Positions 3,826 through 42,860 of a DNA stretch of 44,585 nt are shown one piece after another (the first letter of the stretch is position 1; each line of letters begins with the position of its first letter). The DNA is taken from contig JAAXXA010000001.1 in the NCBI GenBank assembly GCA_013334735.1, positions 1-44,585 on the forward strand, read 5' to 3'. The position numbers and the translations under genes were made by a program. Under the pieces are notes generated by a model. That model worked only from the letters and a program-made list of their open reading frames with translations, searched no databases and was not told the DNA's origin. Source of the DNA: Bacteroidota bacterium. GTDB lineage: Bacteria > Bacteroidota > Bacteroidia > Bacteroidales > CG2-30-32-10.

Positions 3826-4004
3826 TTCCGTAATACATCTTCAATTTTTTCGATAACAGAACTAATTTGATGGCTTTTCCCGTAATAATATTGTAAAATA
3901 ATTCTATCATTTTCTTCGTCAAGTTTTTTTATCCCGCTTTTAATTAAATCAAATTCATTCCTTAATTCAGTAAGTAAAATTTTTAGTTTTTCTTCCATAA
4001 ACAT
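3822..4004 (-). CDS. Small (60 aa) charged, probably helical protein, translationally coupled to 2827..3825
   Basis: ATG at 4004 (a second ATG is at 3998). The sequence MFMEEKLKILLTELRNEFDLIKSGIKKLDEENDRIILQYYYGKSHQISSVIEKIEDVLRK has a heptad-like charge pattern. Its TGA overlaps the downstream ATG by 4 nt. I recognise no homology. Confidence 0.5.
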   Translation of the reverse strand: MFMEEKLKILLTELRNEFDLIKSGIKKLDEENDRIILQYYYGKSHQISSVIEKIEDVLRK

Positions 4005-4208
4005 CAGTTTTATATAATTTTACAAATACTATGATTGCGTAGAAAATTTGGTCTAAGTTGGTTAGTAATGCGAATCAAGGGTTAAATAAATTATTTTTGC
4101 TATTAAAAACACTAAAATGCAGTCAAGGTGACCTTAAAAGCGACTACTCTCAGTGCGATTTATAATAAAATACTTAGAATATTAAACTTCAACTCTTGAT
4201 TTGCATAT

Positions 4209-6026
4209 TTAATTAATATTTAATGATCTCCCTGTTTCTAAATAATTGACTCCGTCAAATACAAATTTAAAAATGTTAGTTTCATTTGGAGTAGTTGTTA
4301 ACGAGGGGGTTGTGATGCCAGACCACTTAATATTTGTAGGCCATGAAACTGCCTTTCCACCCGAGCCATTCTGTTTAATAATAAAAGTATAATTACCACC
4401 ATTCTTGCCATTTGTAAATATGAAAGAACGATTTGTTGCTAATGTAATTTCCTGCACATTGCTTTTATTCCAGTCAACTATGGCCGGGGTAGGAGTGGTA
4501 AAAGTTACCTCAATTCCATAACTTATACCAACTGAATTAACTGCATACGCCCTTACGTAATAGAGAGTACCCGCTGTTAAACCCGTTATTGAAGCTGTAA
4601 ATGCGCCGGTTGTACCGGCTGAAGTTGCTTTGTTATTCCCGGTTGTCGGAGCAGTAGAAGTATTCCAGCAAACGCCTCGCTCTGTTATTGTTGCTCCTCC
4701 ATCAGCGCTAACATTTCCATTCCCTATGGCAGTTGTTGCAGTAATACTTGTAACCGCTAGAGTTGTAATACTTGCAAGGTTGAGAGTAGTAAAAGTTACC
4801 TCATTTCCATAGCTTATACCAGCGGCATTAATAGCATACGCTCTAACGTAATATAAAGTGCCGACAGATAAACCTGTCATTGAAGCGGTAAATGCACCGG
4901 TGGTACCGGCTGAAGTTGCTTTGCTGTTGGCTGTTGTGGGAGTTGCAGAAGTATTCCAGCAAACACCACGCTCAGTTATTGATAATCCTCCATTTGCAGT
5001 TACATTTCCATTACCCGTAGCGGTTGTTGCTGCAATATTACTAACAGCCTGAGTAGTAACGCTTGGAATATTAAAAGTAGTAAAAGTTACCTCATTTCCA
5101 TAGCTTATACCAGCTGAATTAATTGCATAAGCTCTGACGTAATAAAGTGTATTGACAGATAAAGCAGTTATTGCAGAGGTAAATGCACCGGTAGTTCCGG
5201 AAGAAATAGCTTTGTTGTTTGCTGTTGTTGGAACTGTAGAAGTATTCCAGCATACACCACGTTCAGTTATTGTTGCTCCTCCATCTGCTGTAACATTTCC
5301 ATTACCTGTGGCAGTTGTTCCGGCAATATTTGTAACTGCTTGGGTTGTAAGGGTAGGATAAGTTGCCGGTGCCGGCTCAAGAACGAGAGTATATAAGAGT
5401 GGCCAATTCGATGAGCCAACCATGCCAAGACTAGCGCTACCGGCTGGAGTAATCGGACCTTTATCAATATTTTGTTGTGAACAAGTAGTCGCGGTTCTTG
5501 CTGTTTGACCAGATGGTTGAGTATATACAGCATTAGAAAAACTAGTCCCAACAAGCCACGCATTATTTGTAGTGGTTGTTACAGCGCAAGTTTGCGCCAC
5601 ACAAGCATTGTATTGAGGTGGCGTCTGCTGTTTTACCCCATTATATGAAGTAACAGTTGTGGTTTGGCTATCTATTGTTCTGTTAAGAGAAATTACAATA
5701 TCGTGAGTTCCTGTAGCCGGTCCAACAAGGTAATATAAAAAATCCTGTCGCTGCCGCGCATTAGTTAAAAGCCTTGTCATTGCAACTCCATTGTAAGTAA
5801 TACCCGTAACATCATCTGAGGCAGGATATCCAGTTTCGGTTGATACAATTAAAAAAGTATTTGTTCCTGAAACTGTATAAGAAAATGTTGAAGTCCAAAC
5901 CGGACCGGATGCATTATCAAAAGCTACCTGCGAAAAGAGGGAAATAGGAAGTAGAAATAATGACCAAGCAATTAGCGTATTAAATATTGTAAAATTTAAT
6001 TTTGTTTTTTCAAAGAATGTATTCAT
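4209..6026 (-). CDS. Secreted CTD-family protein: signal peptide + 'YNGV' domain + 3 Fn3-like modules (subtype 1) + shared C-terminal domain
   Basis: The track start at 6086 is a TTG (plus caa 6084-6086) that overlaps a TAAGTTTG -7 box. The ATG at 6026 gives MNTFFEKTKLNFTIFNTLIAWSLFLLPISLFSQ. There are three repeats of ..TTATGNGNVTADGGATITERGVCWNTS..TLYYVRAYAINSAGISYGNEVTFTT. The C-terminus is VDWNKSNVQEITLATNRSFIFTNGKNGGNYTFIIKQ..VSWPTNIKW..FKFVFDGVNYLE. Confidence 0.85.
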   Translation of the reverse strand: MNTFFEKTKLNFTIFNTLIAWSLFLLPISLFSQVAFDNASGPVWTSTFSYTVSGTNTFLIVSTETGYPASDDVTGITYNGVAMTRLLTNARQRQDFLYYLVGPATGTHDIVISLNRTIDSQTTTVTSYNGVKQQTPPQYNACVAQTCAVTTTTNNAWLVGTSFSNAVYTQPSGQTARTATTCSQQNIDKGPITPAGSASLGMVGSSNWPLLYTLVLEPAPATYPTLTTQAVTNIAGTTATGNGNVTADGGATITERGVCWNTSTVPTTANNKAISSGTTGAFTSAITALSVNTLYYVRAYAINSAGISYGNEVTFTTFNIPSVTTQAVSNIAATTATGNGNVTANGGLSITERGVCWNTSATPTTANSKATSAGTTGAFTASMTGLSVGTLYYVRAYAINAAGISYGNEVTFTTLNLASITTLAVTSITATTAIGNGNVSADGGATITERGVCWNTSTAPTTGNNKATSAGTTGAFTASITGLTAGTLYYVRAYAVNSVGISYGIEVTFTTPTPAIVDWNKSNVQEITLATNRSFIFTNGKNGGNYTFIIKQNGSGGKAVSWPTNIKWSGITTPSLTTTPNETNIFKFVFDGVNYLETGRSLNIN

Positions 6027-6083
6027 GTTTTTTTCTTTTTTACAGATAATGGTTTTTATTAAAATAATTATTGTGTAAAAATG

Positions 6084-6091
6084 CAAACTTA
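6084..6091 (-). promoter_or_regulatory. Candidate Bacteroidota -7 promoter box (TAAGTTTG)
   Basis: Plus caaactta reads TAAGTTTG on the minus strand. It lies about 58 nt upstream of the ATG at 6026 and overlaps the TTG that the ORF track used as a start. Confidence 0.4.
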
Positions 6092-6115: not shown

Positions 6116-6165
6116 CTGGATTTTTTATGGATAGCCAAAAATTTTTATATGGATTTTTTATGGAC
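6116..6165 (-). promoter_or_regulatory. Phased ATGGAT hexamer array (4 sites in an 11-bp register) upstream of 4209..6026
   Basis: Hexamers start at 6116 (CTGGAT), 6127, 6149 (ATGGAT) and 6160 (ATGGAC). The spacings are 11, 22 and 11 nt. The array lies 25 nt upstream (minus sense) of the TAAGTTTG box. Confidence 0.6.
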
Positions 6166-13007: not shown

Positions 13008-13071
13008 AATATATATATTTTAATTTTAATATAGTTTTAGTATGCTTAATTCAAAGTAACCATTAAATTGA

Positions 13072-13079
13072 CAAATTTA
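13072..13079 (-). promoter_or_regulatory. Candidate Bacteroidota -7 promoter box (TAAATTTG)
   Basis: Plus caaattta reads TAAATTTG on the minus strand. It lies about 65 nt upstream of the ATG at 13007 and overlaps the 3' side of the hairpin at 13076..13113. Confidence 0.3.
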
Positions 13080-13113
13080 CCCCATTAGATAACTTCGTAT
13101 TTAACGGGGTAAA
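13076..13113 (-). terminator. Possible intrinsic terminator hairpin after 13122..15275
   Basis: An 8-bp stem TTTACCCC (13076-13083) pairs with GGGGTAAA (13106-13113) around a 22-nt loop. On the minus-strand RNA it begins 8 nt after the stop codon and is followed by UUUGUCAAUUUAAU. The long loop and only moderately U-rich tail make this weak. Confidence 0.3.
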
Positions 13114-13121
13114 TCAAATTG

Positions 13122-19020: not shown

Positions 19021-20823
19021 TTAAAAGGGGTACTGTAAACCCGCGCCACTATTATAAAGAGCGGATATTTCAGCTGTAGTTAAAACGCGAGACCAAACAC
19101 CGGCCTCATCAATATTTCCATCAAAAGTATTTAATGAAGCTGGGCATTGAATACCGATTGAACAGAAGGTAGAACCTATGTTCAGAGTATTCACAAAAGT
19201 TTGCTCTGTTCCAATATAAGAACCATTAGCATAAAAATTGACTTTTTTTGTAGAACCTTTTATTGTCATAGTGTACATTACCCAACTTCCAACAGCATAA
19301 GAATAATTAATATAAACATCATTACTGTAACTAATACAACACAAACCAGAAGCAGTAAAACCTAAACCGCATGATTGCGCAGTTGCAGCTGTACCGAACT
19401 CGACAGTACCTGCCAAACCAATTTGTGCAACTCTTGGTCTTGCCCAAACATTTATCGTTATGTCTGATAAACCTGAAAGTCCTGATGGGCTCGATTTTAT
19501 TAAGTATCTATCCCCTGAAGGATTAGTCAAAACACCATTATTTATTTTTCCTGCAGGATATGTAGCTGTATTAGTATTTGTAAGTGTATTTGAACCAACA
19601 GCATCTACAGCATTTCCCGAAGATTCGTCCAATTTCCAATATGAAACTAAATTAGCTGCTATATTAGCTGTAGTTACACTGATAGTATTTGAATTTCCAC
19701 TGCTTCCGCAACTGTTAACTGCCCTTACACGATAATAATAGCTTGTTCCGATAGTTAATCCTGTAATATCGTACGAAAGTATATTTCCTACATTAAGATT
19801 GTTATACCCTGTTACAAATGAAGAGAAACCTGTATTTAACGAAACATCAATACAATAAGATGTAGCATAAGTGGAAGAATTCCAGTTGGCTTTGAACAGG
19901 TGAGAGCCTATTCCTGTGGCTTCTAGTGTAGTAACAGAAGCGGGCAAGTTGTTAACTGTTAATGTAGCAATTCCGTCAGAGGTTGTATATGTACATGTGC
20001 CACTGACTATACAGCGGTATTTGTAAGTATTCATTTCAACTGAAGGATTAGTTATGGTTAAAGTTGCTGTAGTAGCCCCAGAATAAACACCTGCATTTGC
20101 TACATCATTCCAACTACTTATATACTCCTGCCATTGATAAGCTAATCCTGATCCTGTTGCTGTAAGTGTGAATGAAGGAGCTCCTATACCTCCACAAACA
20201 GCGGTAGGACTTACCGGTTGTATTGTAATACTTGGGGGTGTGGGATTCACAGCTATTCCATAGTTAGCCGAAATAACGCCATTGCCACAAGCATTTGCTC
20301 CAGTAACAGTAAGGTTGCCGGAAGAAGTAGTTTCTGAAAAATATACAATTACCGCATTTGTTGAACCGACGATAAAAGCCCCTGTTCCTGAATAAGACCA
20401 TATATAGCTAGTGGCTCCGGCAATAGCGGGAACTGAATATAAAACCGCACTTTGACCGGGACAAACATTAGTTGTTCCGCTAATGGTTCCTGCTGCTGAA
20501 GGAAGTGTACAAGTGGTGGGACATGATACAATGTTCCAAGCTCCATTTACATAAGCTTCAAAACAGTTTGTCGTAATATTAAAAATCATAAGACCGGTAG
20601 CAGGTGAAGTTATCAAATCCCGCTGTATTGTGGTCATGCGTGGCATCAGCACTCCTTGCGTTGTACTGCTTATATCAAGGGCTGCGGAGTTATCAGCTTC
20701 ATTGCCGGTGGTATTGATTGATACACCTTGAGAAAAACAATTAACAATTGATAATTGACTATTGATAATTAGCAGGGCATAAATAATGCATTTTGCAATT
20801 TTGAAAGTTTTTTTTATTTTCAT
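19021..20823 (-). CDS. Secreted N-module family protein: N-module + 2 Ig-like modules + Fn3-like + LamG-like domain
   Basis: The track start at 20862 is a TTG (plus caa 20860-20862). The ATG at 20823 gives MKIKKTFKIAKCIIYALLIINSQLSIVNCFSQ/GVSINTTGNEADNSAALDISSTTQGVLMPRMTTIQR. The protein ends LVSYWKLDESSGNAVDAVGSN..IDEAGVWSRVLTTAEISALYNSGAGLQYPF. Confidence 0.85.
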   Translation of the reverse strand: MKIKKTFKIAKCIIYALLIINSQLSIVNCFSQGVSINTTGNEADNSAALDISSTTQGVLMPRMTTIQRDLITSPATGLMIFNITTNCFEAYVNGAWNIVSCPTTCTLPSAAGTISGTTNVCPGQSAVLYSVPAIAGATSYIWSYSGTGAFIVGSTNAVIVYFSETTSSGNLTVTGANACGNGVISANYGIAVNPTPPSITIQPVSPTAVCGGIGAPSFTLTATGSGLAYQWQEYISSWNDVANAGVYSGATTATLTITNPSVEMNTYKYRCIVSGTCTYTTSDGIATLTVNNLPASVTTLEATGIGSHLFKANWNSSTYATSYCIDVSLNTGFSSFVTGYNNLNVGNILSYDITGLTIGTSYYYRVRAVNSCGSSGNSNTISVTTANIAANLVSYWKLDESSGNAVDAVGSNTLTNTNTATYPAGKINNGVLTNPSGDRYLIKSSPSGLSGLSDITINVWARPRVAQIGLAGTVEFGTAATAQSCGLGFTASGLCCISYSNDVYINYSYAVGSWVMYTMTIKGSTKKVNFYANGSYIGTEQTFVNTLNIGSTFCSIGIQCPASLNTFDGNIDEAGVWSRVLTTAEISALYNSGAGLQYPF

Positions 20824-20938
20824 AATTTTTTTTTGATTGTAATTTGTCCGATCTCTTGTCAATTAAATAATTGTTAGTAACATATTATAAATAGCGTGCG
20901 AAGTTACCTCGCAAATCAAGATATTAATAATAATCTAT

Positions 20939-20999
20939 ATGGATTTCTTATGGATAGGTTGTCTAATTTATATGGATTTCTTATGGATTTTTTATGGAC
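20939..20999 (-). promoter_or_regulatory. Phased ATGGAT hexamer array (5 sites in an 11-bp register) upstream of 19021..20823
   Basis: ATGGAT starts at 20939, 20950, 20972 and 20983, and ATGGAC at 20994. The spacings are 11, 22, 11 and 11 nt. Confidence 0.6.
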
Positions 21000-21113
21000 T
21001 TAATATGGGCTTAAATATTAAAGCGCACGAAATCAGGTAAATACAATTTATTAAAGAAAAAGGGAAATTTTATCAGGTCTAGGGTAATTTGTTTAATGCC
21101 AGCAGGAAAAGTT

Positions 21114-21176
21114 GCAGTAGGCAGTTTACAGTCAGCAGTCGGCAATAGGCAGTCGGCATTCGGCAATCAGTAACTT
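21114..21176. repeat. Degenerate heptanucleotide tandem array (8-9 units, consensus GCAGTCG/GCAATCA)
   Basis: Read in register from 21114: gcagtag gcagttt acagtca gcagtcg gcaatag gcagtcg gcattcg gcaatca gtaactt. It has the same RGCARTC core as 2711..2759. It is intergenic, between the stop at 21226 and the ATGGAT array at 20939..20999. Confidence 0.6.
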
Positions 21177-21225
21177 AATATAGTTGGTTTAAAAATGCGG
21201 GAATTTAACCTTTTTGTAAACATAA

Positions 21226-22833
21226 TCATTTAATGTCCAGAGTAATTCCGTTTCCGAGATAATAGGTTCCATTATAAATAAATTTTACAAGATCAGTAGC
21301 GTTAGGTGTGGCAGTAAATGTTGGGACTATACCGCCTGCCCACTTAACATCTGAGGGCCAGGAAATTGCCCATCCACCTGTAGCATTCTGGTTTATCATC
21401 AAATTATATATGCCTCCACTCTTACCGTTTGTAAAAATAAATGAACGAGAGGTAGTTAGTGTGATTTCCTGCACGTTGCTGTTATTCCAGTTAATAGTAG
21501 CCGGGGTAAAAAGAGTAGTAAAAGTTCCATCGGAGGAATATGCAGTACCCACGCTGTTTGTAGCATAACCCCTGTAATATATAACAGGGCTGGATGATAA
21601 ACCCGTTCGCGCCTGAGTAAATATTCCGGTTGCAGTGCCACCTTCGGCAACACAATTGGTAGTTGGGTTTGCTGAAGTTCCCCAGCAAGTACCTCTTGAT
21701 GTGATTGTTGCGCCTCCATTTGAAGTTATGTTAGCCCCCATTGTTGCAGAATTGCTTGTAATATAAGTTGCAGTTGGAGTAGTAATTGTAGGAATGTTCA
21801 GAGTAGTAAAAGTGTCATCGCTTGAATAGCCTGTTCCGGCTCCATTTGTCGCGTAACCTCTATAATATATAAGAGTACCGGCCGGCATCCCTGTTCTTGC
21901 ATGGGTAAACACTCCCGAGGTTGTGCTTCCTTCTGCTAAACAATTGGTGGTAGGATTAGCCGAAGTTCCCCAGCAAGTGCCTCTCGCTGTGATTGTAGCG
22001 CCACCATCAGAAGTAACATTAGCGCCCAAAGTAGCGCCTGTAGATGTAATGGAAGCTGAGGTGGGGGAGGTAACTGAAGGCGCACTTGCCAGACATGAAG
22101 CCATATCTGATACAAATGTTGCTGAATTTTCATTAGTAAGAGTATTTCCATTTCCTGATCCGTCAACAAGCGAATTGTTCAAGTGCCACGAAGCCTGAAG
22201 ATTTGACGCGGAATTGATTTCAACACATTTATTATCATTTATTTGCCCCCCTGATCTGGCAACATTCCATAATCGGACATCATCAATTTGGAAATCTCCA
22301 TAACTTTGGACTCCGTTTATGTATAAATTTGTAGAATTATCAATTAAAGTACAACCTCCACCCTGATTGCCGCCTAATCCATTGCCAACAGAAGTCCCGT
22401 TAAAAAAGAACTCCCATCTTGTTGCTGCAGGATTTGCAACTGTTTCTACTATAGCAATATGATACCATGTATTAGTTGTAATTGTTTGTACAATGAATGC
22501 AGATGTAAAAACATTTTCGGTATAAGAGAAATTGTAAATTCCAAATTGACATCCAGAATAAACCCAGTCAACACCATAATACAATAACCAACCTCCACCT
22601 CCATTACCGGCAGTTTTACCCATCACTGTAATTGGAGACCCCGGTTGAGTATTTATTTTAAACCAAAACTCCAAGGTATTGTTTCCGGTGTAAGAAAGAG
22701 AAGCATTGTCAGCCACTTTTAATCTTTGTGAACCAGCAGATGTTAGTTTTGCTGAATATAAATCTTGTGCATGGATATAATATGTTCCTGAATAGTAAAA
22801 TATTAGTAATAAAATTGAAAGAAATTTTTTCAT
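21226..22833 (-). CDS. Secreted CTD-family protein: signal peptide + LamG-like head + 2 Fn3-like modules (subtype 2) + shared C-terminal domain
   Basis: Starts MKKFLSILLLIFYYSGTYYIHAQ. LamG-like motifs: LSYTGNNTLEFWFKI..IDDVRLWNVARSGGQINDNKC. Two copies of ..LGANxTSxGGATITxRGTCWGTSANPTTNC.AEG..IYYRGYATN..GT.YSSD.TFTT are present. The protein ends INWNNSNVQEITLTTSRSFIFTNGKSGGIYNLMINQNATGGWAISWPSDVKWAGG..KFIYNGTYYLGNGITLDIK. Confidence 0.9.
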   Translation of the reverse strand: MKKFLSILLLIFYYSGTYYIHAQDLYSAKLTSAGSQRLKVADNASLSYTGNNTLEFWFKINTQPGSPITVMGKTAGNGGGGWLLYYGVDWVYSGCQFGIYNFSYTENVFTSAFIVQTITTNTWYHIAIVETVANPAATRWEFFFNGTSVGNGLGGNQGGGCTLIDNSTNLYINGVQSYGDFQIDDVRLWNVARSGGQINDNKCVEINSASNLQASWHLNNSLVDGSGNGNTLTNENSATFVSDMASCLASAPSVTSPTSASITSTGATLGANVTSDGGATITARGTCWGTSANPTTNCLAEGSTTSGVFTHARTGMPAGTLIYYRGYATNGAGTGYSSDDTFTTLNIPTITTPTATYITSNSATMGANITSNGGATITSRGTCWGTSANPTTNCVAEGGTATGIFTQARTGLSSSPVIYYRGYATNSVGTAYSSDGTFTTLFTPATINWNNSNVQEITLTTSRSFIFTNGKSGGIYNLMINQNATGGWAISWPSDVKWAGGIVPTFTATPNATDLVKFIYNGTYYLGNGITLDIK

Positions 22834-22877
22834 AGGGTTACATTTTTATTTTTTTAACAATAATTAATAATAAAGTA

Positions 22878-22885
22878 CAAAATTA
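22878..22885 (-). promoter_or_regulatory. Candidate Bacteroidota -7 promoter box (TAATTTTG)
   Basis: Plus caaaatta reads TAATTTTG on the minus strand. It lies about 45 nt upstream of the ATG at 22833. Confidence 0.4.
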
Positions 22886-22917
22886 TAATGTATATAAAAA
22901 AAATAAAAATAATCTAT

Positions 22918-22967
22918 ATGGATTTTTTATGGATAACCCTATTATTTTATATGGATTTTTTATGGAA
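22918..22967 (-). promoter_or_regulatory. Phased ATGGAT hexamer array (4 sites in an 11-bp register) upstream of 21226..22833
   Basis: ATGGAT starts at 22918, 22929 and 22951, and ATGGAA at 22962. The spacings are 11, 22 and 11 nt. The array lies 33 nt upstream (minus sense) of the TAATTTTG box. Confidence 0.6.
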
Positions 22968-22995
22968 AGTAAAAAAATAAAATGATGATAATAAG

Positions 22996-25266
22996 TTATT
23001 TAAAATCTAATGCAGGTGCATATCCTAAATAATAAGTCCCGTTATATACAAATTTCAGAAGATCAATGGAGTTTGCAGTTGTAGTAAATATTGGTGCTGT
23101 ACCACCCGCCCACTTGACATTTGCTGGCCAAGATACAGCCCAGCCACCAGTGTTATCCTGGTTTATCATCAAAGTATATATACCTCCGCTCTTGCCGTTT
23201 GTAAATGTAAAAGAACGAGTTGTTGTTAGTGTAATTTCCTGCACATTGCTGTTATTCCAGTTAACTGTGGCTGGGGTAGGAACAGGAAAGAGGTAACTGA
23301 CAATCACAATTCCTGAACCACCGGAATAAGAGTTGTCTGAAGTTGAGCCTTTTCCGCCACCACCTCCGCCGCCTGTATTAGCTGTTCCTGCTGAGCCTGC
23401 TGAAACATTGGGAGCGTGTGTTCCATTCCCACCACCTCCGGTTCCTCCAGTTCCGAAAGTAGTATATGCTGAACCGCCACCACCTCCGGCATAAGTTACC
23501 GAAGAACCGGAAATACTTGAAGTTCTTCCAACTCCACCATTACCACCTGTTCCCGGAGAAGCATTGGTGCCGGCTGATCCAGCGCCACCACCACCGCCGG
23601 AAGCGTAATTATTGCTGGTGTTAGCAAATCCTGTCCCTCCATTATATCCTTGAGAACCTATACCGCCAGCATTAGTGAACGTTGATTCAGCTGTTCCACC
23701 GCCACCACCAGCGCCTCCATTTTGTCCTTCTCCATTTGTTGTTGAGCCACTATAACTTCCGCCACCTCCTCCTCCGAAAGCAGTGATGGTTCCAAATACT
23801 GAATTTCCCCCATTACCACCGGGAGTTCCATCACTAATTGTGTTAATAACACCAGTGCCTCCGTTACCAACTGTTACAGTTATATTTCCGGAAACTGAAG
23901 TTGAAGTGGAAATAAAACCACCCGCGCCTCCGCCAGCTCCTGTATTGCCTCCACCCGCACCTCCGCCACCTACTATCAAAACATTTACAGTGCCTGTTTC
24001 TGTACAAACCAAAGTTCCATTACTTGTAAAAGTGTGAATTGTGTTTCCGCCTATATGTGTGATGCTACCACCAGTGCATGCATTTGAAAAATAGAGAGGA
24101 TTGTTAATAGCGAAACCATTCGTCAGGGTTCCAAACTGATTGTCAGGGTTCGTAACTATTATATTCCAGTTGCCAACAGCGGCTCCTGTAATTGGACAAG
24201 TACCGTTACTTAATGTTGAAGAATTGGCAAAGTTGAAACCTGTACAATTTATATCACTTTGACCACTCTTAGTGAGCGATACCGTGGCTCCTGACTGAAA
24301 GTTGCTGCCTGTTACAGAACTTATAAAAACAGATCCCGTATTAACACTATTGTTCGGATTTATAGCAGAAACAGTTGGAGCTTCTATTAAATATTCTGAA
24401 GTTGGAGGGGTAAAGTTTGCAGTCCATCTTGCTATTCCTTTTGAAATTCTTAATTCGTCCATCCATCCAGTGAAAAAGTGTGTTGTGTATGTCGGCCAAG
24501 TTCCAACATTCAATACGCCGGTGAGGTTTGCCGGTGTTCCCACGATTGTTCCGCTTGTTTCAACTAATGTTCCATCTAAGTATGCTTTGACAGTAGTTCC
24601 ATATCTAACCCAGGCGAAGTGATGCCATGTGTTTAACGATATTTCATTCATTACAGTTTGAGCGACAAAATGAGTAGTTCCACCTGTTTTTAACACACAT
24701 TCTAAAAATGTCTCTGTTGGACCACCCCATCTATATGCGGCATAGAAAAAATTATTTCCATCTTGACCGGCTGCTTGAGATTGCGAAACAATATTATAGT
24801 AATTTCCAGTAGCTGAGCCGGGTTGTTCTGTAAGGTAAACCCAAGTGTCAATAGTCCAATCTCCATCGCCAAAAGACCAATCGTCGCAATCTGGGGTTGT
24901 TAAGTAATCACCACTTCCATCAAAAAATCCGGAAGCTGTTCCAAATTTATGTTGTGCAGTACTTATTTGTGTATTTCCAACAGGAGTAAAAGTATGAGAA
25001 CTACCTCCTGCGTTGTCGGTGAAGGTGGTAGAGCCGTTTGTACCGTTCATGTGAAGGAGGGTTTTCGTATAGGCATCATTGCCCTGAGCAGAAGTTTCAA
25101 TGGAATTTATATTAAGAAAAGCGAATGTGCTCAGTATTACAAATGCAAGTGAAAAGTTGAACCTTCGACTCGTTCGACTGCGATCACCACAAGTACACTT
25201 AGGGGGACAAGTGTAAAAAGCATATATTATGCTTTTTGAGAATTGATATATATATTTTGTTGACAT
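22996..25266 (-). CDS. CTD-family protein: long N-terminal leader + LamG-like + IPT/TIG-like + glycine-rich (phage tail-fibre-like) domain + shared C-terminal domain
   Basis: ATG at 25266. About 35 residues (..YTCPPKCTCGDRSRTSRR) precede the hydrophobic stretch FNFSLAFVILSTFAFLNINSIETSAQ. LamG-like motifs: LLHMNGTNGSTTFTDNAGG..MDELRISKGIARW. IPT-like motif: PTVSAINPNN..SGATVSLTKSGQSDINC. Gly-rich domain: VNVLIVGGGGAGGGNTGAGGGAGG..ITVTVGNGGTG..SISGSSVTYAGGGGG..GGSGIVIVSY. The protein ends VNWNNSNVQEITLTTTRSFTFTNGKSGGIYTLMINQ... Confidence 0.85.
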   Translation of the reverse strand: MSTKYIYQFSKSIIYAFYTCPPKCTCGDRSRTSRRFNFSLAFVILSTFAFLNINSIETSAQGNDAYTKTLLHMNGTNGSTTFTDNAGGSSHTFTPVGNTQISTAQHKFGTASGFFDGSGDYLTTPDCDDWSFGDGDWTIDTWVYLTEQPGSATGNYYNIVSQSQAAGQDGNNFFYAAYRWGGPTETFLECVLKTGGTTHFVAQTVMNEISLNTWHHFAWVRYGTTVKAYLDGTLVETSGTIVGTPANLTGVLNVGTWPTYTTHFFTGWMDELRISKGIARWTANFTPPTSEYLIEAPTVSAINPNNSVNTGSVFISSVTGSNFQSGATVSLTKSGQSDINCTGFNFANSSTLSNGTCPITGAAVGNWNIIVTNPDNQFGTLTNGFAINNPLYFSNACTGGSITHIGGNTIHTFTSNGTLVCTETGTVNVLIVGGGGAGGGNTGAGGGAGGFISTSTSVSGNITVTVGNGGTGVINTISDGTPGGNGGNSVFGTITAFGGGGGGSYSGSTTNGEGQNGGAGGGGGTAESTFTNAGGIGSQGYNGGTGFANTSNNYASGGGGGAGSAGTNASPGTGGNGGVGRTSSISGSSVTYAGGGGGSAYTTFGTGGTGGGGNGTHAPNVSAGSAGTANTGGGGGGGKGSTSDNSYSGGSGIVIVSYLFPVPTPATVNWNNSNVQEITLTTTRSFTFTNGKSGGIYTLMINQDNTGGWAVSWPANVKWAGGTAPIFTTTANSIDLLKFVYNGTYYLGYAPALDFK

Positions 25267-25333
25267 TATTGTTTTTACTTTTATTGATCTATTAATATAA
25301 TTTATATAATGCTAAAAATTAGTTTGTAAATAT

Positions 25334-25416
25334 ATGGATTTTATATGGATAATAAATTAATTATATCTTGATTTATCATGGACAACCCCATTATTTTATA
25401 TGGATTTTTTATGGAT
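25334..25416 (-). promoter_or_regulatory. Phased ATGGAT hexamer array (5 sites in an 11-bp register) upstream of 22996..25266
   Basis: ATGGAT starts at 25334 and 25345, ATGGAC at 25378, and ATGGAT at 25400 and 25411. The spacings are 11, 33, 22 and 11 nt, all multiples of 11. Confidence 0.6.
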
Positions 25417-25443: not shown

Positions 25444-28400
25444 TCATTTAATATCTAATGCCGGTGTATCTCCTAAAAAATTAGTTCCGTCATTCACAAA
25501 CTTAAACATGTCAACAGCATTAGCATTAGAGGTTAATGTTGGCGCTGTACCGCCAATCCATTTCACATTTGAAGGCCATGAAACTTTCCATCCGCCTGTT
25601 GCATTTTGCTTAATAATTAAAGTATAAATAGCTCCACTTTTTCCGTTAGTGAAAGTAAACAAACGATCGGTAGTCAAGGTTATTTCCTGTACATTGCTGT
25701 TATTCCAGTTTACTGCTGCAGGACTGTTAATACTGAAACCATTTGTTAAGGTTCCTGTTTGCGTATCAGGGTTTGTAACTACAACATTCCACTGTCCGGT
25801 AGCGGCTCCTGTGATTGGACAAGTTCCGGTAATTAATGTAGTGGAATTGGAAAAAGTGAAACCGGTACAATTTATATTACTTTGACCACTTTTAGTAAGT
25901 TTAACTGTGGCTCCTGATTGAAAATATGTGCCTGTTACAGAAGATATGGAAATAGAAGCTGTATTTGTAGCACTTGATGGAGAAATTGCCGTAACTGTAG
26001 GTGCAGGGTTCATTACAGTAAAATTTCCACCCGGATATAAGAATGTGTGAACCGTGTTTGCTCCATCAGTTGTTTCAGTGCCTCCGGTAATTGTATATGC
26101 AGTAAAATCAGCAGTTTTATATGAAATAATTACAATACCCGAACCACCTGCCTTACCACTTGTATTCCAACCTGCACCACCACCTCCTCCGGTATTTGGA
26201 GTCCCAGCAGTTGAATTATTACTACTACCATCCTCTCCCTTTCCACCACCTCCGGTACCACCAGCGCCTCCGGTTATTGTGCCTCCAGCTCCGCCGCCAC
26301 CGCCATAGGTTACTGATGAACCGGAAATTGAATATGTTACTCCATTTCCACCATTACCTCCTATGCTTGAAGTACCATTTCCACCAACTGCTCCTGCACC
26401 GCCACCACCACCGCCAGATGAGCTGTTTGTGGAATATCCATTTCCGCCATTGTAACCTTGCCCGGAAATACCGTATCCACCTGTCCACGGAGATTGGCTT
26501 CCACCACCACCACCAGATCCTCCTGAATATCCTGCAGTATTATAAGCTCCTTTACCACCGCCAATTGCAGACATATTATCAAAAACAGAATTTCCTCCTG
26601 TAGATTCTGTACTACCACCAGCTCCAACGGTAACGGTATATACTTGTGTTGTAATATTATGTATTGCTTCATAAAGAACTCCGCCGCCACCACCGCCACC
26701 GGTATTGCCACTATTACCACCACCCCCAGCTACAACCAATGCTTTTATAGTACCTATAGGAGCGCTCATTACAACGCTAAAAACCCCACTATTGTTAAAT
26801 GTGTGTACTGTATATGCCCCATTGGTAGTAATGGTACCCCCATTTATAGTGTAAGCAGACCAGTCCGCAGTTTTATAGCTGATGATAACAACACCTGAAC
26901 CACCTGATCCGGCAGTATTTGTTTCATAGCAACCACCGCCGCCACCACCTAATCCATTAGTTCCGGGAATTGCAGCGCTTGGACTGTTATTATAATTTGC
27001 CCCATTTCCTCCTCCTCCAAGCCCACCTGTTCCGTTTGAAACTACACTGGAAGAACCACCACCACCACCACCGGCATAATAAACACTTGATCCTGAGATT
27101 GAATATGGAAGACCGTCACCGCCATTCCCTGAAATACTCTGAGTTCCATTAGCTCCTGCTTTTCCTGCTCCACCACCACCTCCGGTAGAGTAACCGGGAA
27201 TGCCGGAAGCAGTTCCTCCATTGTTTCCTTGTCCTGATGTACCCAAACCCTGACCAAGAGCGCCATATCCATCTCCTCCACCTGAGCCTCCATCAGCGCC
27301 TGCTGGTGTTGCAGAGCCTCCATGTCCTCCGCCAAATGCTGTTATTGTATGAAAGATAGAATTTCCACCATTTGTGGCTCTTGTGTCATAATAAGTGTTG
27401 CCTGACAAACCACCGCCACCAACAGTAACAGTATATGCTTGAGCTGTAACAGTGTGTGATGCGTCATATAACAAACCACCGCCACCACCACCACCACCAT
27501 GCCATCCACCACCTCCACCGCCTCCAGCAACTACAAGTATTTCCATAGCATTTGATGCGGTAACAAGAGTATTAAAAGTTCCATCGGCAGAATATCCTGT
27601 ACCGGCGCTGTTTGTGGCATAACCTCTGTAATATATGAGTGTACCACTTGGAAATCCTGTTCGTGCATGGGTAAATATTCCGGTTGTTGTATTGCCTTCT
27701 GCAACACAGTTTGTGGCTGGGTTTGCCGAAGTACCCCAGCAAACACCTCTCGCGGTAATGGTAGCGCCTCCATCGGAGGTTATATTTGCGCCAAGCAAGG
27801 CAGTATTAGTTGTAATAGCAGTAGCAGTGGGTGAAGTAAGTATAGGCGCAGTTGCAGGCGCCGGTGCGATTGATATTTGTATCATTGCCCATGGAGTTGA
27901 TCCACTAAGACCTGCAGTTTGTGAATAAGACCCAACTGGAGTAATTGCAGCATTATTATCACCTAAGTAAGGAAATGAATTAGATGCCCTTGCAGTAACA
28001 TTTGTATATGTTGTTGGCTGTCCATTTGCTCCAAATCCTGCAATTACCCAACTATTATTTGTAACAGTGGTGATTGAACGTGTGATAGATGTGCCGCTAG
28101 TAGTTCCATAAGAAAGCGCTTCCGGTTGACCTGAAGTTTTTACTCCGGAATAAGTTGCAACCGATGATGCATTAAAGTTAGAACCTGTAATAACTAAGGT
28201 GTTCGCGCCTGTAGCAGGAGACATTAAAATTAGCATTTGAATCCAGTTAGATTGCGAACTCATTTGCTGAACTACCTGTGATGTGAGGCTAACACCATTA
28301 TAAGTTGCAGAAACGGGAGTTGCTGAGGTTAAACCAACAAGAAGCACCATGAAATTTCCACCGGTGTTAGTGAAAGAGTATGATCCAGCTCCACCGGCAT

Positions 28401-28491
28401 TATAAGATGAGTTATATGCTATAGCTGCATTAGCAGAGTTCGAAATACTAAAAAAAAGTATCGTAATTAAAATTAAGAGAAGTTTTTTCAT
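25444..28491 (-). CDS. Secreted CTD-family protein (1015 aa): 'YNGV' domain + Fn3-like (subtype 2) + two glycine-rich domains + IPT/TIG-like + shared C-terminal domain
   Basis: Starts MKKLLLILITILFFSISNSANA. 'YNGV' domain motif: AIAYNSSYNAGGAGSYSFTNTGGNFMVLLVG..VSATYNGVSLT. Gly-rich copy 1 runs MEILVVAGGGGGGGWHGGGGGGGG..YTVTVGGGG..GGSGVVIISY. Copy 2 runs IKALVVAGGGGNSGNTGGGGGGG..YTVTVGAGG..GGSGIVIISY. Each is followed by YTI.GGT.TT.GA.TVHTF. IPT-like motif: PTVTAISPSS..SGATVKLTKSGQSNINC. The protein ends VNWNNSNVQEITLTTDRLFTFTNGKSGAIYTLIIKQ... Confidence 0.9.
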   Translation of the reverse strand: MKKLLLILITILFFSISNSANAAIAYNSSYNAGGAGSYSFTNTGGNFMVLLVGLTSATPVSATYNGVSLTSQVVQQMSSQSNWIQMLILMSPATGANTLVITGSNFNASSVATYSGVKTSGQPEALSYGTTSGTSITRSITTVTNNSWVIAGFGANGQPTTYTNVTARASNSFPYLGDNNAAITPVGSYSQTAGLSGSTPWAMIQISIAPAPATAPILTSPTATAITTNTALLGANITSDGGATITARGVCWGTSANPATNCVAEGNTTTGIFTHARTGFPSGTLIYYRGYATNSAGTGYSADGTFNTLVTASNAMEILVVAGGGGGGGWHGGGGGGGGLLYDASHTVTAQAYTVTVGGGGLSGNTYYDTRATNGGNSIFHTITAFGGGHGGSATPAGADGGSGGGDGYGALGQGLGTSGQGNNGGTASGIPGYSTGGGGGAGKAGANGTQSISGNGGDGLPYSISGSSVYYAGGGGGGSSSVVSNGTGGLGGGGNGANYNNSPSAAIPGTNGLGGGGGGCYETNTAGSGGSGVVIISYKTADWSAYTINGGTITTNGAYTVHTFNNSGVFSVVMSAPIGTIKALVVAGGGGNSGNTGGGGGGGVLYEAIHNITTQVYTVTVGAGGSTESTGGNSVFDNMSAIGGGKGAYNTAGYSGGSGGGGGSQSPWTGGYGISGQGYNGGNGYSTNSSSGGGGGGAGAVGGNGTSSIGGNGGNGVTYSISGSSVTYGGGGGAGGTITGGAGGTGGGGKGEDGSSNNSTAGTPNTGGGGGAGWNTSGKAGGSGIVIISYKTADFTAYTITGGTETTDGANTVHTFLYPGGNFTVMNPAPTVTAISPSSATNTASISISSVTGTYFQSGATVKLTKSGQSNINCTGFTFSNSTTLITGTCPITGAATGQWNVVVTNPDTQTGTLTNGFSINSPAAVNWNNSNVQEITLTTDRLFTFTNGKSGAIYTLIIKQNATGGWKVSWPSNVKWIGGTAPTLTSNANAVDMFKFVNDGTNFLGDTPALDIK

Positions 28492-28520
28492 CAGGTAATA
28501 TTTTTATTTGTTTAACAAAA

Positions 28521-30284
28521 TTACTTAATATTTATGTTAGTTCCTATTTCTAAATAATTAGAGCCATCAAAAATAAATCTTGAAATGTCGACAGCATCAG
28601 GTAAAGTTGAAAATGTTGGCATTATTCCACCTGTCCACTTAACATTAGGCGGCCATGAAATAGTCCATCCGCCTATACTATTCTGTTTAATGATAAGGTT
28701 ATATATGCCACCACTCTTACCGTTGGTAAATGTGAAAGAACGATTTGCCGTCAAAGTAATTTCCTGCACGTTGCTGTTGTTCCAATTTACTGTAGCAAAT
28801 GTAACAGTAGTAAAAGTACCATCGGTGGAATACCCGGTACCCACGCTGTTTGTAGCATAACCTCTGTAATATATGAGTGTACCACTTGGAAATCCTGTTC
28901 GTGCATGGGTAAATACTCCTGTTGTTGTGCCGCCCTCAGAAACACAATTTGTGCTTGGGTTTGCCGAAGTTCCCCAGCATGTGCCTCTTGCTGTGATTGT
29001 AGCGCCACCATCCGAAGTTATATTGGCGCCAATAGTAGCGCTGTTGGTTGTAATAGATGTGGCAGTAGGAGTTGTAACAGTCGGGATATTAAGAGTAGTA
29101 AAAGTACCATCGGCAGAATATCCTGTGCCTACGCTGTTTGTTGCGTAACCTCTGTAATAAATGAGCGTACCTGCCGGTAATCCTGTTCTTGCCTGAGTGA
29201 ATATTCCCATTGAGGTTCCACCTTCGGCAACGGAGTTGGTGGTTGGACTAGCCGAAGTTCCCCAGCAGGTTCCCCTTGCAGTAATTGAAGCGCCTCCATT
29301 AGAAGTAATATTAGCGCCTAAAGTGGCGGTTGTAGATGTGATTGTAGTTGAAGTAGGAGAAGTTATAGTAGGGACGCTTGTTGCTTCTACTGTAGTAAAT
29401 GTTCCGCTTGAGGTAAAAGTATGAATAGTATATGAACCGTCTGTTGTGATGGTTCCACCGGTACACGTTCCAAAATCAGTAGTGAGATATCTGATAATTA
29501 CAACACCCGACCCACCTTTCCTAGAAGTTGCACCTGTACTTCCACCACCACCTCCTCCTGAATTTGCCAATCCTTCAGTTGGGTTTGGACCGCCTCCTGA
29601 ACCGCCACCACCTGCCCCTGCTGAACCACCTGTATCGCCCGCGCCGCCACCACCTCCACCACCATACGTTACAGAGGTGCCGGTAATAGAATTAGCAGTG
29701 CCTCCACCACCCGCGCCGCCAACACTAAAGCTAACTCCATTTGATCCAACAGCATTATCACCGCCACCTCCGCCGCCACCGCCATTTGAAGCCCCCCCCG
29801 CTTTTCCTGAACCGCTCGTACCACCTTTTGATGAACTGGCTGTTGCTCCTTTACCACTTATTGCTGTTATTGTGCTAAAAATGCTATTACTTCCATCAAT
29901 ACCAGGATAACCGCTAACTGTTTGTCCAGCTCCACCATCTCCAACAGTAACAGAATATGCTTGAATTGACAAAGCAAAAGATGCATTATACCTAACTTGA
30001 CCGCCGCCACCACCACTAGGATAGTCAACACTGGAAGTGGAACCACCACCACCGCCGCCACCGCCTACTACCAATACTTGTACATTTTGCGAAACTATAG
30101 TTGCCGGGGTAAAAATCGCCAGTATATTAATTATTAAAAAGTCAAAAGGACCCACAGACCTCCAAGCTTTCCCTACTTCGACTCTGTTTAGGGTAAATCG
30201 TGAGAGAATTGTACCACGATGTTGAATTTTTGCTTTGCAAGAAATCTCCTCGCTAAGTTCTGATAAATGATTTATTTTTTTCAT
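28521..30284 (-). CDS. CTD-family protein: extended MKKINxLSE leader with internal hydrophobic segment + glycine-rich domain + 2 Fn3-like (subtype 2) + shared C-terminal domain
   Basis: Starts MKKINHLSELSEEISCKAKIQHRGTILSRFTLNRVEVGKAWRSVGPFDFLIINILAIFTPATIVSQ/NVQVLVVGGGGGGGG..YSVTVGDGGAG..GGSGVVIIRY. Two ..ITARGTCWGTSA.P.TN..AEGGT..LIYYRGYATNSVGTGYS.DGTFTT modules follow. The protein ends VNWNNSNVQEITLTANRSFTFTNGKSGGIYNLIIKQ... Confidence 0.85.
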   Translation of the reverse strand: MKKINHLSELSEEISCKAKIQHRGTILSRFTLNRVEVGKAWRSVGPFDFLIINILAIFTPATIVSQNVQVLVVGGGGGGGGSTSSVDYPSGGGGGQVRYNASFALSIQAYSVTVGDGGAGQTVSGYPGIDGSNSIFSTITAISGKGATASSSKGGTSGSGKAGGASNGGGGGGGGDNAVGSNGVSFSVGGAGGGGTANSITGTSVTYGGGGGGGAGDTGGSAGAGGGGSGGGPNPTEGLANSGGGGGGSTGATSRKGGSGVVIIRYLTTDFGTCTGGTITTDGSYTIHTFTSSGTFTTVEATSVPTITSPTSTTITSTTATLGANITSNGGASITARGTCWGTSASPTTNSVAEGGTSMGIFTQARTGLPAGTLIYYRGYATNSVGTGYSADGTFTTLNIPTVTTPTATSITTNSATIGANITSDGGATITARGTCWGTSANPSTNCVSEGGTTTGVFTHARTGFPSGTLIYYRGYATNSVGTGYSTDGTFTTVTFATVNWNNSNVQEITLTANRSFTFTNGKSGGIYNLIIKQNSIGGWTISWPPNVKWTGGIMPTFSTLPDAVDISRFIFDGSNYLEIGTNINIK

Positions 30285-30317
30285 AAGTTTACAATTTATT
30301 TGTATAACAAATTGGTA

Positions 30318-32210
30318 TTATTTAATATCTAGAGTTATTCCATTTCCTAGAAAATTTGTTCCATCAAACACAAATCTTATTAGGTCAACTGCATTGGCTG
30401 TTGTACTAAGTATAGGAGTTATTCCTCCCGCCCACTTAATATTTGAAGACCAAGTAACTGTCCAGCCACCTGTGCCATCCTGTTTTATTATGAGCGTATA
30501 AAGACCTCCGCTCTTACCGTTGGTAAATGAAAAAGAACGATTGGCATCCAATGTAATTTCCTGCACATTGCTGTTATTCCAATTAACTGTAGCAGGGGTA
30601 ACAGTAGTAAAAGTACCATCGGCGGAATATCCGGTGCCCACATTATTTGTTGCATAACCTCTGTAATAAATGAGCGTGCCTGCGGGTAAACCGGTTCTTG
30701 GCTTGGTGAATACTCCCGTTGCAGTGCCGCCCTCAGCTATACAATTTGTGCTTGGGTTTGCCGAAGTTCCCCAGCAGGTGCCTCTTGCAGTGATGGCAGC
30801 GCCACCATCTGAAGTTATATTGGCGCCTAACGTGGCGCTGTTGGTAGTAATAGATATAGCAGTAGGAGTTGTAACAGTCGGAATATTAAGAGTAGTAAAA
30901 GTTACATCATTTCCATAACTTACACCAACTGAATTAATCGCATAAGCCCTGACATAATAAAGTGAGCCGATAGATAACCCTGTCATTGAAGCGGTAAATG
31001 CTCCGGTAGTTCCAGTGGAGGTTGCTTTGCTGTTAGCGGTAGTAGGAGTTGCAGATGTATTCCAACATACGCCACGCTCGGTTATTGTAGTTCCGCCATC
31101 TGCGCTTACATTTCCATTACCTGTGGCTGTTGTTGCTGCAATATTTGTAATTGCTTGTGTTGTAACTGTAGGAATATTAAGAGTAGTAAAAGTACCATCG
31201 GCAGAATAGCTCGTGCCTACGCTGTTTGTGGCATAACCTCTGTAATATATTATTGTACCTGCCTGTAATCCTGTTCTTGCCTGAGTGAATATTCCCGTTA
31301 CGGTACCACCTTCGGCAACGCAATTTGTAGTTGGGTTAGCCGAAGTTCCCCAGCAGGTTCCCCTTGCAGTAATAGAAGCGCCTCCATTAGAAGTAATATT
31401 AGCACCTAAAGTGGCACCGGTAGAAGTAATAGAAGTTGCAGTGGGTGAAGTTAAAATAGGGGCAGTGGCGCAAGGCGGTACACTGGTAGTGATGGTCGCC
31501 GAGTTTACATTAGTGAGAGTATTGTTGTTCCCTGAGGCATCAGTAAGACCGTTGTCTAAATGCCAAGAACCTCGAAGATTCGATGCGGAATTAATAATTA
31601 CACACTTGTTATCGTTAATTTCTGTTACAGTTCTGACCACACTCCAAGCTCTAATATCGTCTATTTCGCCGTCAAAAAAGTGGTCAAAGTAACCACTTAC
31701 AAAATAAGAACCGAAGTGCCATACCTCTACCGCATCAACAAGTGAAGTGGGAGATACTGTCTGGTCTGCTCCTTGCTGAACTCCATCAACATAGAATTTT
31801 ATTTTTCCAGCAGTGCTATAAGTAAATGCCACATGATACCAAGTTGAAACTATTGGTGTCCAATTAACTTCTACTGTTGATTGAACACTACCGGAGTTAA
31901 CATAAACTGATAATTTATTGACAGAAGATACTCTTTTCCATAAAAAAAACCAAGGTCCGTGGGAAGCTCCTGAAACATCTCCATCTCCAGCGAAAACTCT
32001 AGTTTCGTTTGCACCTGCGGGCACTGTCGCAAATTTAACCCACATTTCTACAGTTAAATCACCTGTAATTGATAAAGAAGCGCTATTAGCAGCAGTGAAA
32101 TATTGAGAACTCGCTCTGACTAATGTAGCTGAATGTGTATTTTGCGCATAAGCTGAATAGCAATCTATGAAAAAAAGTATAGTTATAAAAATTGAAAGAA
32201 TTTTTTTCAT
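30318..32210 (-). CDS. Secreted CTD-family protein: LamG-like head + 3 Fn3-like modules (subtype 2, 1, 2) + shared C-terminal domain
   Basis: Starts MKKILSIFITILFFIDCYSAYAQ. LamG-like motifs: LSITGDLTVEMWVKF..IDDIRAWSVVRTVTEINDNKC. Module order read directly: ARGTCWGTSANPTTNC.. / ERGVCWNTSATPTTANSK.. / ARGTCWGTSANPSTNC... The protein ends VNWNNSNVQEITLDANRSFSFTNGKSGGLYTLIIKQ... Confidence 0.9.
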   Translation of the reverse strand: MKKILSIFITILFFIDCYSAYAQNTHSATLVRASSQYFTAANSASLSITGDLTVEMWVKFATVPAGANETRVFAGDGDVSGASHGPWFFLWKRVSSVNKLSVYVNSGSVQSTVEVNWTPIVSTWYHVAFTYSTAGKIKFYVDGVQQGADQTVSPTSLVDAVEVWHFGSYFVSGYFDHFFDGEIDDIRAWSVVRTVTEINDNKCVIINSASNLRGSWHLDNGLTDASGNNNTLTNVNSATITTSVPPCATAPILTSPTATSITSTGATLGANITSNGGASITARGTCWGTSANPTTNCVAEGGTVTGIFTQARTGLQAGTIIYYRGYATNSVGTSYSADGTFTTLNIPTVTTQAITNIAATTATGNGNVSADGGTTITERGVCWNTSATPTTANSKATSTGTTGAFTASMTGLSIGSLYYVRAYAINSVGVSYGNDVTFTTLNIPTVTTPTAISITTNSATLGANITSDGGAAITARGTCWGTSANPSTNCIAEGGTATGVFTKPRTGLPAGTLIYYRGYATNNVGTGYSADGTFTTVTPATVNWNNSNVQEITLDANRSFSFTNGKSGGLYTLIIKQDGTGGWTVTWSSNIKWAGGITPILSTTANAVDLIRFVFDGTNFLGNGITLDIK

Positions 32211-32238
32211 CGGATTAAATTTTTATTTGTTTAACAAT

Positions 32239-34749: not shown

Positions 34750-34766
34750 TGTTCGTATTAATTAAT

Positions 34767-37364: not shown

Positions 37365-37393
37365 AATTTGTAGATAATTGTTATATAATTAAT

Positions 37394-39001: not shown

Positions 39002-39033
39002 TTTGTTTATTTTAATTTTAATGATATATGTAT

Positions 39034-40848: not shown

Positions 40849-40888
40849 GATTTTACAAATATTATATTTTAAAATAAATATACATTTC

Positions 40889-42829: not shown

Positions 42830-42860
42830 TAGTTTAAATTTTAATTTGTTAAAAGTTTTC

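Follow-up and report, generated by a model that had tools for sequence, protein, structure and literature searches.

The contig JAAXXA010000001.1, which belongs to a metagenome-assembled genome (MAG) of a Bacteroidota bacterium whose genes carry HGB12_ locus tags, is occupied by genes for surface-type proteins, and in four of its intergenic regions short ATGGAT-like hexamers recur at intervals of 11, 22 or 33 bp. The question that this locus raises is what such regularly spaced repeats do in front of these genes. They could be sites for a DNA-binding protein, the by-product of duplicated promoters, elements acting in RNA, or traces of recombination or replication. In this work, the whole contig of 44,585 bp is referred to as the window. 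A preliminary description of it proposed that the four arrays form a shared operator that co-regulates members of two surface-protein families. The arrays are a real, highly non-random and constrained feature, and on balance we lean towards the view that they serve as an operator for a direct-repeat-binding protein at four homologous surface-protein promoters.

All 21 large open reading frames (ORFs) of the window lie on the minus strand, and coding DNA makes up 95% of the contig. Seven intergenic regions exceed 100 nt, four of which carry arrays. All hexamer coordinates of the preliminary description proved correct (Table 1), and arrays 1-4 hold four, five, four and six units, respectively, where the last number counts in a degenerate dimer at 25367. 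Eight copies of the phased pair ATGGATN5ATGGA are present against 0.03 expected, a number reached in none of 100 shuffles, and all eight pairs lie on the plus strand within the four intergenic regions. The hexamer ATGGAT taken alone is in mild excess across the window (44 occurrences against 26.9 expected). Since the single hexamer is barely enriched, the signal resides in the 11-bp phased pairing and not in the hexamer. Scoring with a weight matrix of the 11-nt unit gives 18 sites within the approximately 270 bp of arrays and 14 isolated ones in the remaining 44 kb, the latter being what chance provides (15.3 +/- 2.7 in simulated sequence). A motif at background frequency with no 11-bp register had been named beforehand as the outcome that would speak against an operator; what was found is a strong excess of phased pairs, with isolated units at chance level. 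Independently of these counts, Tandem Repeats Finder (TRF) assigned periods of 11 and 33 to the arrays.

On the gene strand, the repeated unit has the 11-nt sequence ATCCATA(A/T)AAA; two units compose a dimer of 22 nt, which is repeated with a period of 33 bp. The preliminary description took two hexamers 11 bp apart as the basic unit, which holds, and we refine this to a 22-nt dimer repeating at 33 bp, with array 4 containing an extra degenerate dimer at 25367. Over the 19 units, TCCATA (unit positions 2-7) is near-invariant, with 1.5-2.0 bits at each position, and is followed by an A-rich tail in which positions 8-10 retain 0.9-1.2 bits and are A/T-rich. Operators of the OmpR/PhoB type are recognized by at least two head-to-tail repeats at a centre-to-centre spacing of 11 bp (10-11) and by a conserved core of 6-7 bp that precedes a more variable A/T-rich stretch of 4-5 bp, and the arrays display both features. 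Because known sites of this class share that core, that A/T-rich remainder and that 11-bp head-to-tail layout, the binder is most likely an OmpR/PhoB-type winged-helix response regulator. The same class was suggested in the preliminary description, and the layout agrees with it, the assignment being drawn by analogy of site architecture.

Comparison of the four regions shows where the similarity is concentrated. The dimers are 0.82-0.92 identical between regions, with a mean pairwise identity of 0.89 for the 22-nt dimers, and the 16-nt inter-dimer spacer is 0.60 identical. The 60 nt downstream of the array reach 0.57 and the 60 nt upstream 0.35, the background for random intergenic 20-mers being 0.32. 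In the adjacent paralogous genes, the best-conserved part, which is the last 300 nt, is 0.66-0.76 identical, and the third codon positions of that part are 0.47-0.61 identical. The peak of identity on the cores and its drop in the spacers speak for constraint acting on the repeats themselves rather than for gene conversion of whole blocks, and from this pattern the arrays look constrained. In all regions the distal and the proximal dimers hold tails of their own, ATAAAA and ATAGAT, respectively. These distinct tails indicate that the two-dimer module together with the promoter is one homologous cassette of about 110 bp, and that the dimers did not arise from independent local duplications.

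The position of the arrays relative to the genes is equally regular. Their orientation with respect to the genes is fixed in all four cases, and the proximal hexamer lies 87, 116, 85 and 68 nt from the likely downstream ATG (arrays 1-4), whereas on the other side of the array the stop codon of the upstream gene is anywhere between 25 and 226 nt away. As the start-codon distance is stable and the upstream-stop distance variable, the arrays belong to the downstream genes. The perfect TAnnTTTG boxes that were previously noted past two of the arrays are present, past arrays 1 and 3, and when all regions are read in an ungapped register, a TAnnTTTG-like box occurs 32-39 nt past the proximal hexamer in four of four regions, two of these boxes being perfect. 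In array 4 the register is counted from the degenerate middle dimer, and the extra dimer at 25334-25350 sits in the promoter spacer region. No perfect TAnnTTTG box was found upstream of any array in non-coding DNA within 200 nt. The promoters are predicted ones, and a sigma-70 promoter scan is uninformative for promoters of the Bacteroidetes type.

Table 1. Coordinates of the repeat arrays, the genes downstream of them and the predicted promoter boxes in the 44,585-bp window.
Feature	Coordinates	Strand	Description
Array 1	6116..6165	-	4 units; hexamers 6116 (CTGGAT), 6127, 6149, 6160 (ATGGAC); two 22-nt dimers 33 bp apart
Array 2	20939..20999	-	5 units; hexamers 20939, 20950, 20972, 20983, 20994 (ATGGAC)
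Array 3	22918..22967	-	4 units; hexamers 22918, 22929, 22951, 22962 (ATGGAA)
Array 4	25334..25416	-	Three dimers in 33-bp steps: 25400/25411; degenerate 25367/25378 (25378 = ATGGAC); 25334/25345
Gene downstream of array 1	4209..6086	-	Family A; fn3-like repeats and shared C-terminal domain; likely true ATG 6029
Gene downstream of array 2	19021..20862	-	Family B; N-terminal QGVSINTTG region, PKD-like, fn3, LamG; likely true ATG 20823
Gene downstream of array 3	21226..22833	-	Family A LamG-domain protein, NCBI NTW31029.1
Gene downstream of array 4	22996..25266	-	Family A; LamG and Gly_rich_2 domains
Perfect Bacteroidetes-type -7 box TAAGTTTG	6084..6091	-	24 nt downstream of array 1 proximal hexamer
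In-register box CATTTTTA, array 1	6076..6083	-	Ungapped register
In-register -7-like box TAACTTCG, array 2	20899..20906	-	5/6 specified bases; alternative TTGATTTG at 20912-20919
Perfect -7 box TAATTTTG, array 3	22878..22885	-	32 nt downstream of proximal hexamer; also the in-register box
In-register -7-like box TATATTTA, array 4	25327..25334	-	5/6 specified bases

The two paralog families are both of surface type. Proteins of family A have in common a C-terminal domain of about 100 aa (VNWNNSNVQEITL...), and those of family B an N-terminal region (QGVSINTTGNEADNSA...); both families contain LamG, PKD-like, fn3, Gly_rich_2 and FISUMP domains, and their N-termini resemble signal peptides. All 21 large ORFs encode surface-type proteins, apart from one homing-endonuclease-like orphan. 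As previously proposed, the genes downstream of the arrays come from both families: 4209..6086, 21226..22833 and 22996..25266 belong to family A, and 19021..20862, which is the first in a run of family B genes with short spacers, to family B. The contig ends truncate a family B gene at 1-834 and a family A gene at 42861-44585, both on the minus strand, and the nine-gene run of family A (25444-44510) has its head off the contig, where any array preceding it would lie too.

In the mechanism that we propose, the four arrays would be copies of one cis-regulatory operator situated within the homologous promoter module. Each 11-bp unit would bind one DNA-binding domain, an adjacent pair would hold a head-to-tail dimer, and a second (sometimes a third) dimer at a distance of 33 bp, and on about the same helical face, would permit cooperative occupancy. 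The proximal dimer would end approximately 20-32 bp upstream of a -7 box of the TAnnTTTG type, and the bound protein, located at or just upstream of the -33 region, might have an activating or a repressing effect on the RNA polymerase that contains the primary sigma factor. In this manner, a single signal could control four transcription units for secreted or surface proteins from two paralog families. Layout, orientation, start distance, promoter-like boxes and conservation all fit the shared operator put forward in the preliminary description, from which we infer binding and co-regulation. It is also conceivable, if unlikely, that array and promoter form a portable cassette that fronts unrelated surface-protein genes and whose unit number shifts by 11 or 33 bp (4, 5, 4, 6), letting the lineage rewire and tune which members of the 40-kb island answer one lineage-specific regulator with an undescribed recognition sequence.

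Several known operator systems resemble the arrays to different degrees. In the PHO box, two direct repeats of 11 nt each are occupied in head-to-tail arrangement (PMC4415409), and the sites of PhoP from Mycobacterium tuberculosis consist of 7-bp repeats with a 4-bp spacer (PMC4832192). Like the arrays, operators of the PHO box and OmpR/PhoB kind combine 11-bp direct-repeat units, a 6-7-bp core with an A/T-rich remainder and head-to-tail pairs; in these operators, one promoter often contains several such pairs, located at the -35 region or farther upstream (PMC4415409; PMC4832192). Unlike the PHO box, the arrays have an ATCCAT core, dimers that are 33 bp apart instead of contiguous at 22 bp, and a Bacteroidetes -33/-7 promoter. 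From ArcA operators they differ in the core bases and in lying mostly upstream of the predicted -7 box, ArcA being mostly a repressor that overlaps promoter elements. The ArcA sites of Escherichia coli are otherwise comparable to the arrays. Their ATGTTAAAAA repeats have centres 11 bp apart and are accompanied by one to three further copies in steps of 11 or 22 bp (PMC4173790), and the array unit, which reads ATCCATAAAAA, is joined by extra units at 11, 22 or 33 bp.

Within the same phylum, the predicted operators of Bacteroides hybrid two-component systems (HTCS, AraC-type) and of SusR are likewise direct repeats on one face of the helix, upstream of clusters of surface or outer-membrane genes (PMC3878776). 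In those operators, the distance between two sites of 12-16 bp is about 21 bp (HTCS) or 67/77 bp (SusR), and SusC/SusD loci lie beside them, unlike the array sites, which are internally repeated at 11 bp and recur 33 bp apart; no SusC/SusD or HTCS genes occur among the window genes, and the arrays fall outside this class. They also stand apart from TAACTGA-type heptamers, which are contiguous 7-nt repeats near the start codon (PMC4679880), by their period of 11/33 and their distance of 68-116 nt from the ATG.

The same module can be read without a dedicated regulator. The arrays would then be the conserved upstream segment of a promoter cassette, duplicated along with the genes or copied from one gene to another, in which an A-tract or UP-like element bends DNA or touches RNA polymerase, or in which gene conversion keeps the copies alike. 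This is consistent with homology that covers the whole module, the downstream 60 nt included, with the phased A5-6 tract present in each unit, and with a locus rich in recent paralogs and tandem duplications. We nevertheless consider it rather unlikely, given that the conservation peak on the TCCAT cores, with its drop in the spacer and the upstream flank, does not resemble block gene conversion, and that curvature is not consistently high, the arrays ranging from the 39th to the 97th percentile of the window in our own unvalidated Bolshoy-Trifonov wedge model. An action in RNA has a different basis. Arrays 3 and 4 begin 25-28 nt past the upstream stop codon with no intrinsic terminator between, so a read-through RNA would include them, and a post-transcriptional role has been proposed for intergenic short direct repeats in a few Bacteroidetes (PMC4679880). 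On this account UCCAU in the 5' or 3' untranslated region of minus-strand transcripts, or AUGGA in a plus-strand small RNA, would be bound by a multimeric RNA-binding protein. This appears very doubtful to us: folding is not significant on either strand (z from -1.6 to +1.3 against shuffled sequence), Rfam gave no match, perfect -7 boxes follow arrays 1 and 3 and none occurs in the non-coding DNA within 200 nt upstream, and an 11-nt spacing corresponds to the DNA helix and to no known RNA-protein register.

The presence of one module before two unrelated gene families with unrelated upstream flanks, and of a multi-copy homing-endonuclease-like gene 2 kb from array 1, brings to mind recombination or mobile-element sites, such as transposase or recombinase repeats, a miniature inverted-repeat transposable element, or cassette junctions that shuffle surface-protein genes. 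Such an origin is most improbable, as all four arrays are co-oriented, no terminal inverted repeats or target duplications were found at them beyond low-complexity A/T matches, no recombinase or transposase is encoded in the window, and homologs of the endonuclease-like gene lie on other contigs with no arrays nearby. We give almost no credence to small plus-strand peptides or to replication elements. The sequence ATG GAT TTT TTA TGG does open short plus-strand frames (MDFLWI...) that a 33-bp period keeps in phase, yet within a dimer the two identical hexamers are not in the same frame, which means that a coding role cannot account for their likeness, and CTG takes the place of ATG at the start of array 1. 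Similarly, TTATCCATA is one base from the DnaA box TTATCCACA, but no perfect box is present, and one-mismatch boxes number 12 against 15.3 expected, with two of the 12 in arrays. Plasmid iterons and parC-type centromere repeats are short, helically phased direct repeats with cooperative protein binding, found as one cluster beside rep or par genes, unlike the arrays, which make up four clusters, each in front of a gene, on a contig that encodes neither rep nor par. The iterons mentioned in the preliminary description as a second possibility are therefore not supported, there being four separate loci, no replication gene in the window and no enrichment of DnaA boxes.

The interpretation of the arrays as an operator also has evidence against it, which we gather here. 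No regulator gene was found in the window, all 21 large ORFs having been examined. The arrays are absent from the three other intergenic regions longer than 100 nt (2606-2826, 3826-4208 and 13008-13121). The perfect boxes stand at different offsets from the proximal hexamer, 24 nt in array 1 and 32 nt in array 3, and the helical register between array and promoter may therefore not necessarily be fixed. The four modules share ancestry, and history or gene conversion, rather than selection, could be behind part of their similarity. Finally, other lineages gave no comparative support. The strict 19-mer TATATGGATTTYTTATGGA was scanned over 185,579 species genomes and the Joint Genome Institute (JGI) metagenome collection, the host MAG not being among them, and returned 25 and 43 single matches, respectively, at chance level or in coding DNA, with no clustered locus. 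An exact 19-mer would miss diverged versions of the motif; ATGGANNNNNNATGGAN(17)ATGGANNNNNNATGGA is one example of a looser pattern. Repeated matches from one metagenome proved to be coding sequence of paralogous genes, and no arrays were found at the loci of other organisms reached via protein homologs (P0008, P0124, P0125, P0128, P0129 and P0134).

A literature search yielded no match to the literal motif and no regulator site that the core ATCCAT fits; to our knowledge, this core matches no known regulator site. The 19-mer scan also brought up an 11-bp satellite (GGAATTTATAT-like) of about 700 bp on the metagenome contig Ga0126342_10002227 (L065), positions 9400-10110. The DNA around it has few long ORFs and is not bacterial-looking, and we rejected this satellite as a chance 19-mer match unrelated to the arrays.

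If the operator is confirmed, an uncultured lineage of Bacteroidota would gain a specific cis-regulatory code for a large island whose paralogous genes encode secreted or surface proteins (with LamG, PKD-like, fn3, glycine-rich and FISUMP domains). We know of almost no transcription-factor sites in such uncultured lineages. The array could be used as bait for finding its regulator and as a search pattern for the regulon in the full MAG. That a protein binds helically phased direct repeats cooperatively in front of a promoter is an established principle, and the gain would be local, not conceptual; most likely, the arrays are a real yet fairly ordinary kind of bacterial control element.

Apart from the arrays, the intergenic DNA contains further structured elements. 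A G+C-rich hairpin of seven pairs, TGCGAGGTAACTTCGCA, lies at 20897-20913 on the minus strand, between array 2 and the start of gene 19021-20823, where it overlaps the in-register -7-like box TAACTTCG; its possible roles include those of a stem-loop at the 5' end, an attenuator and a second operator. In one of the array-free intergenic regions, 114 nt long, another minus-strand hairpin occupies 13072-13113 (arm TTTACCCC, 22-nt loop, arm GGGGTAAA), and its 3' arm overlaps a perfect TAAATTTG box. This combination suggests a separate transcription boundary within the family B run.

Two degenerate 7-nt tandem repeats on the minus strand, at 21095-21170 and 2713-2754, are both located in long intergenic regions. 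The former, upstream of array 2, reads CTGATTG CCGAATG CCGACTG CCTATTG CCGACTG CTGACTG TAAACTG CCTACTG, and within it TRF called GCAGTCG x7.4 at 21114-21165; the latter reads TTGATTT CTGATTG CAGACTG CTGATTG CTAACTA TTGATTG. Intergenic TAACTGA heptamer repeats have been described in Beggiatoaceae, Cyanobacteria and five Bacteroidetes (PMC4679880). The 7-nt repeats of the window recall these heptamers, but sit 190-280 nt from the next start codon.

The orphan gene HGB12_00015 (2827-3825, minus strand; annotated with 314 aa), which is adjoined by a 60-aa ORF at 3822-4004 on the same strand, was considered as a source of the array binder and rejected, as it is multi-copy, has homologs elsewhere with no arrays and is more likely a selfish gene. 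It had no sequence match in Pfam, NCBIfam or PDB. Two more paralogs with 74-78% identity occur in the same MAG. A metagenome contig of 186 kb contains a homolog in two identical copies, 22 kb from each other, and there is a relative of 480 aa that overlaps a gene for an N6/N4 DNA methyltransferase. Its AlphaFold model (predicted local distance difference test, pLDDT, 66.8) contains repeated beta-beta-beta-alpha units, and a Foldseek search with this model retrieved viral HNH homing endonucleases with E-values down to 6e-6 and low TM-scores. HGB12_00015 is probably a free-standing selfish endonuclease-like gene.

Repeats are also found within the surface-protein genes themselves. The sequence CCTTATGCCTTATGCCTCCGCCATAGGCGGATGCCTTATGCC is common to the signal-peptide coding regions of five family B genes (approximately 776-800, 10535-10560, 12949-12975 and 15127-15166, minus strand). 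It consists of ATGCCTT twice, either side of a CCGCC-ATA-GGCGG palindrome, and encodes ALCLRHRRMPYAFF, an insert absent in other paralogs; all checked copies are in frame, with no evidence of phase variation at this sequence. Many family A genes have in common tandem repeats of 288-291 nt, 76-87% identical and specifying an fn3-like domain of some 97 aa, located at 4493-5357, 32523-33096, 37675-38248, 43427-44000 and other positions. The surface-protein locus evolves by duplication of both domains and genes.

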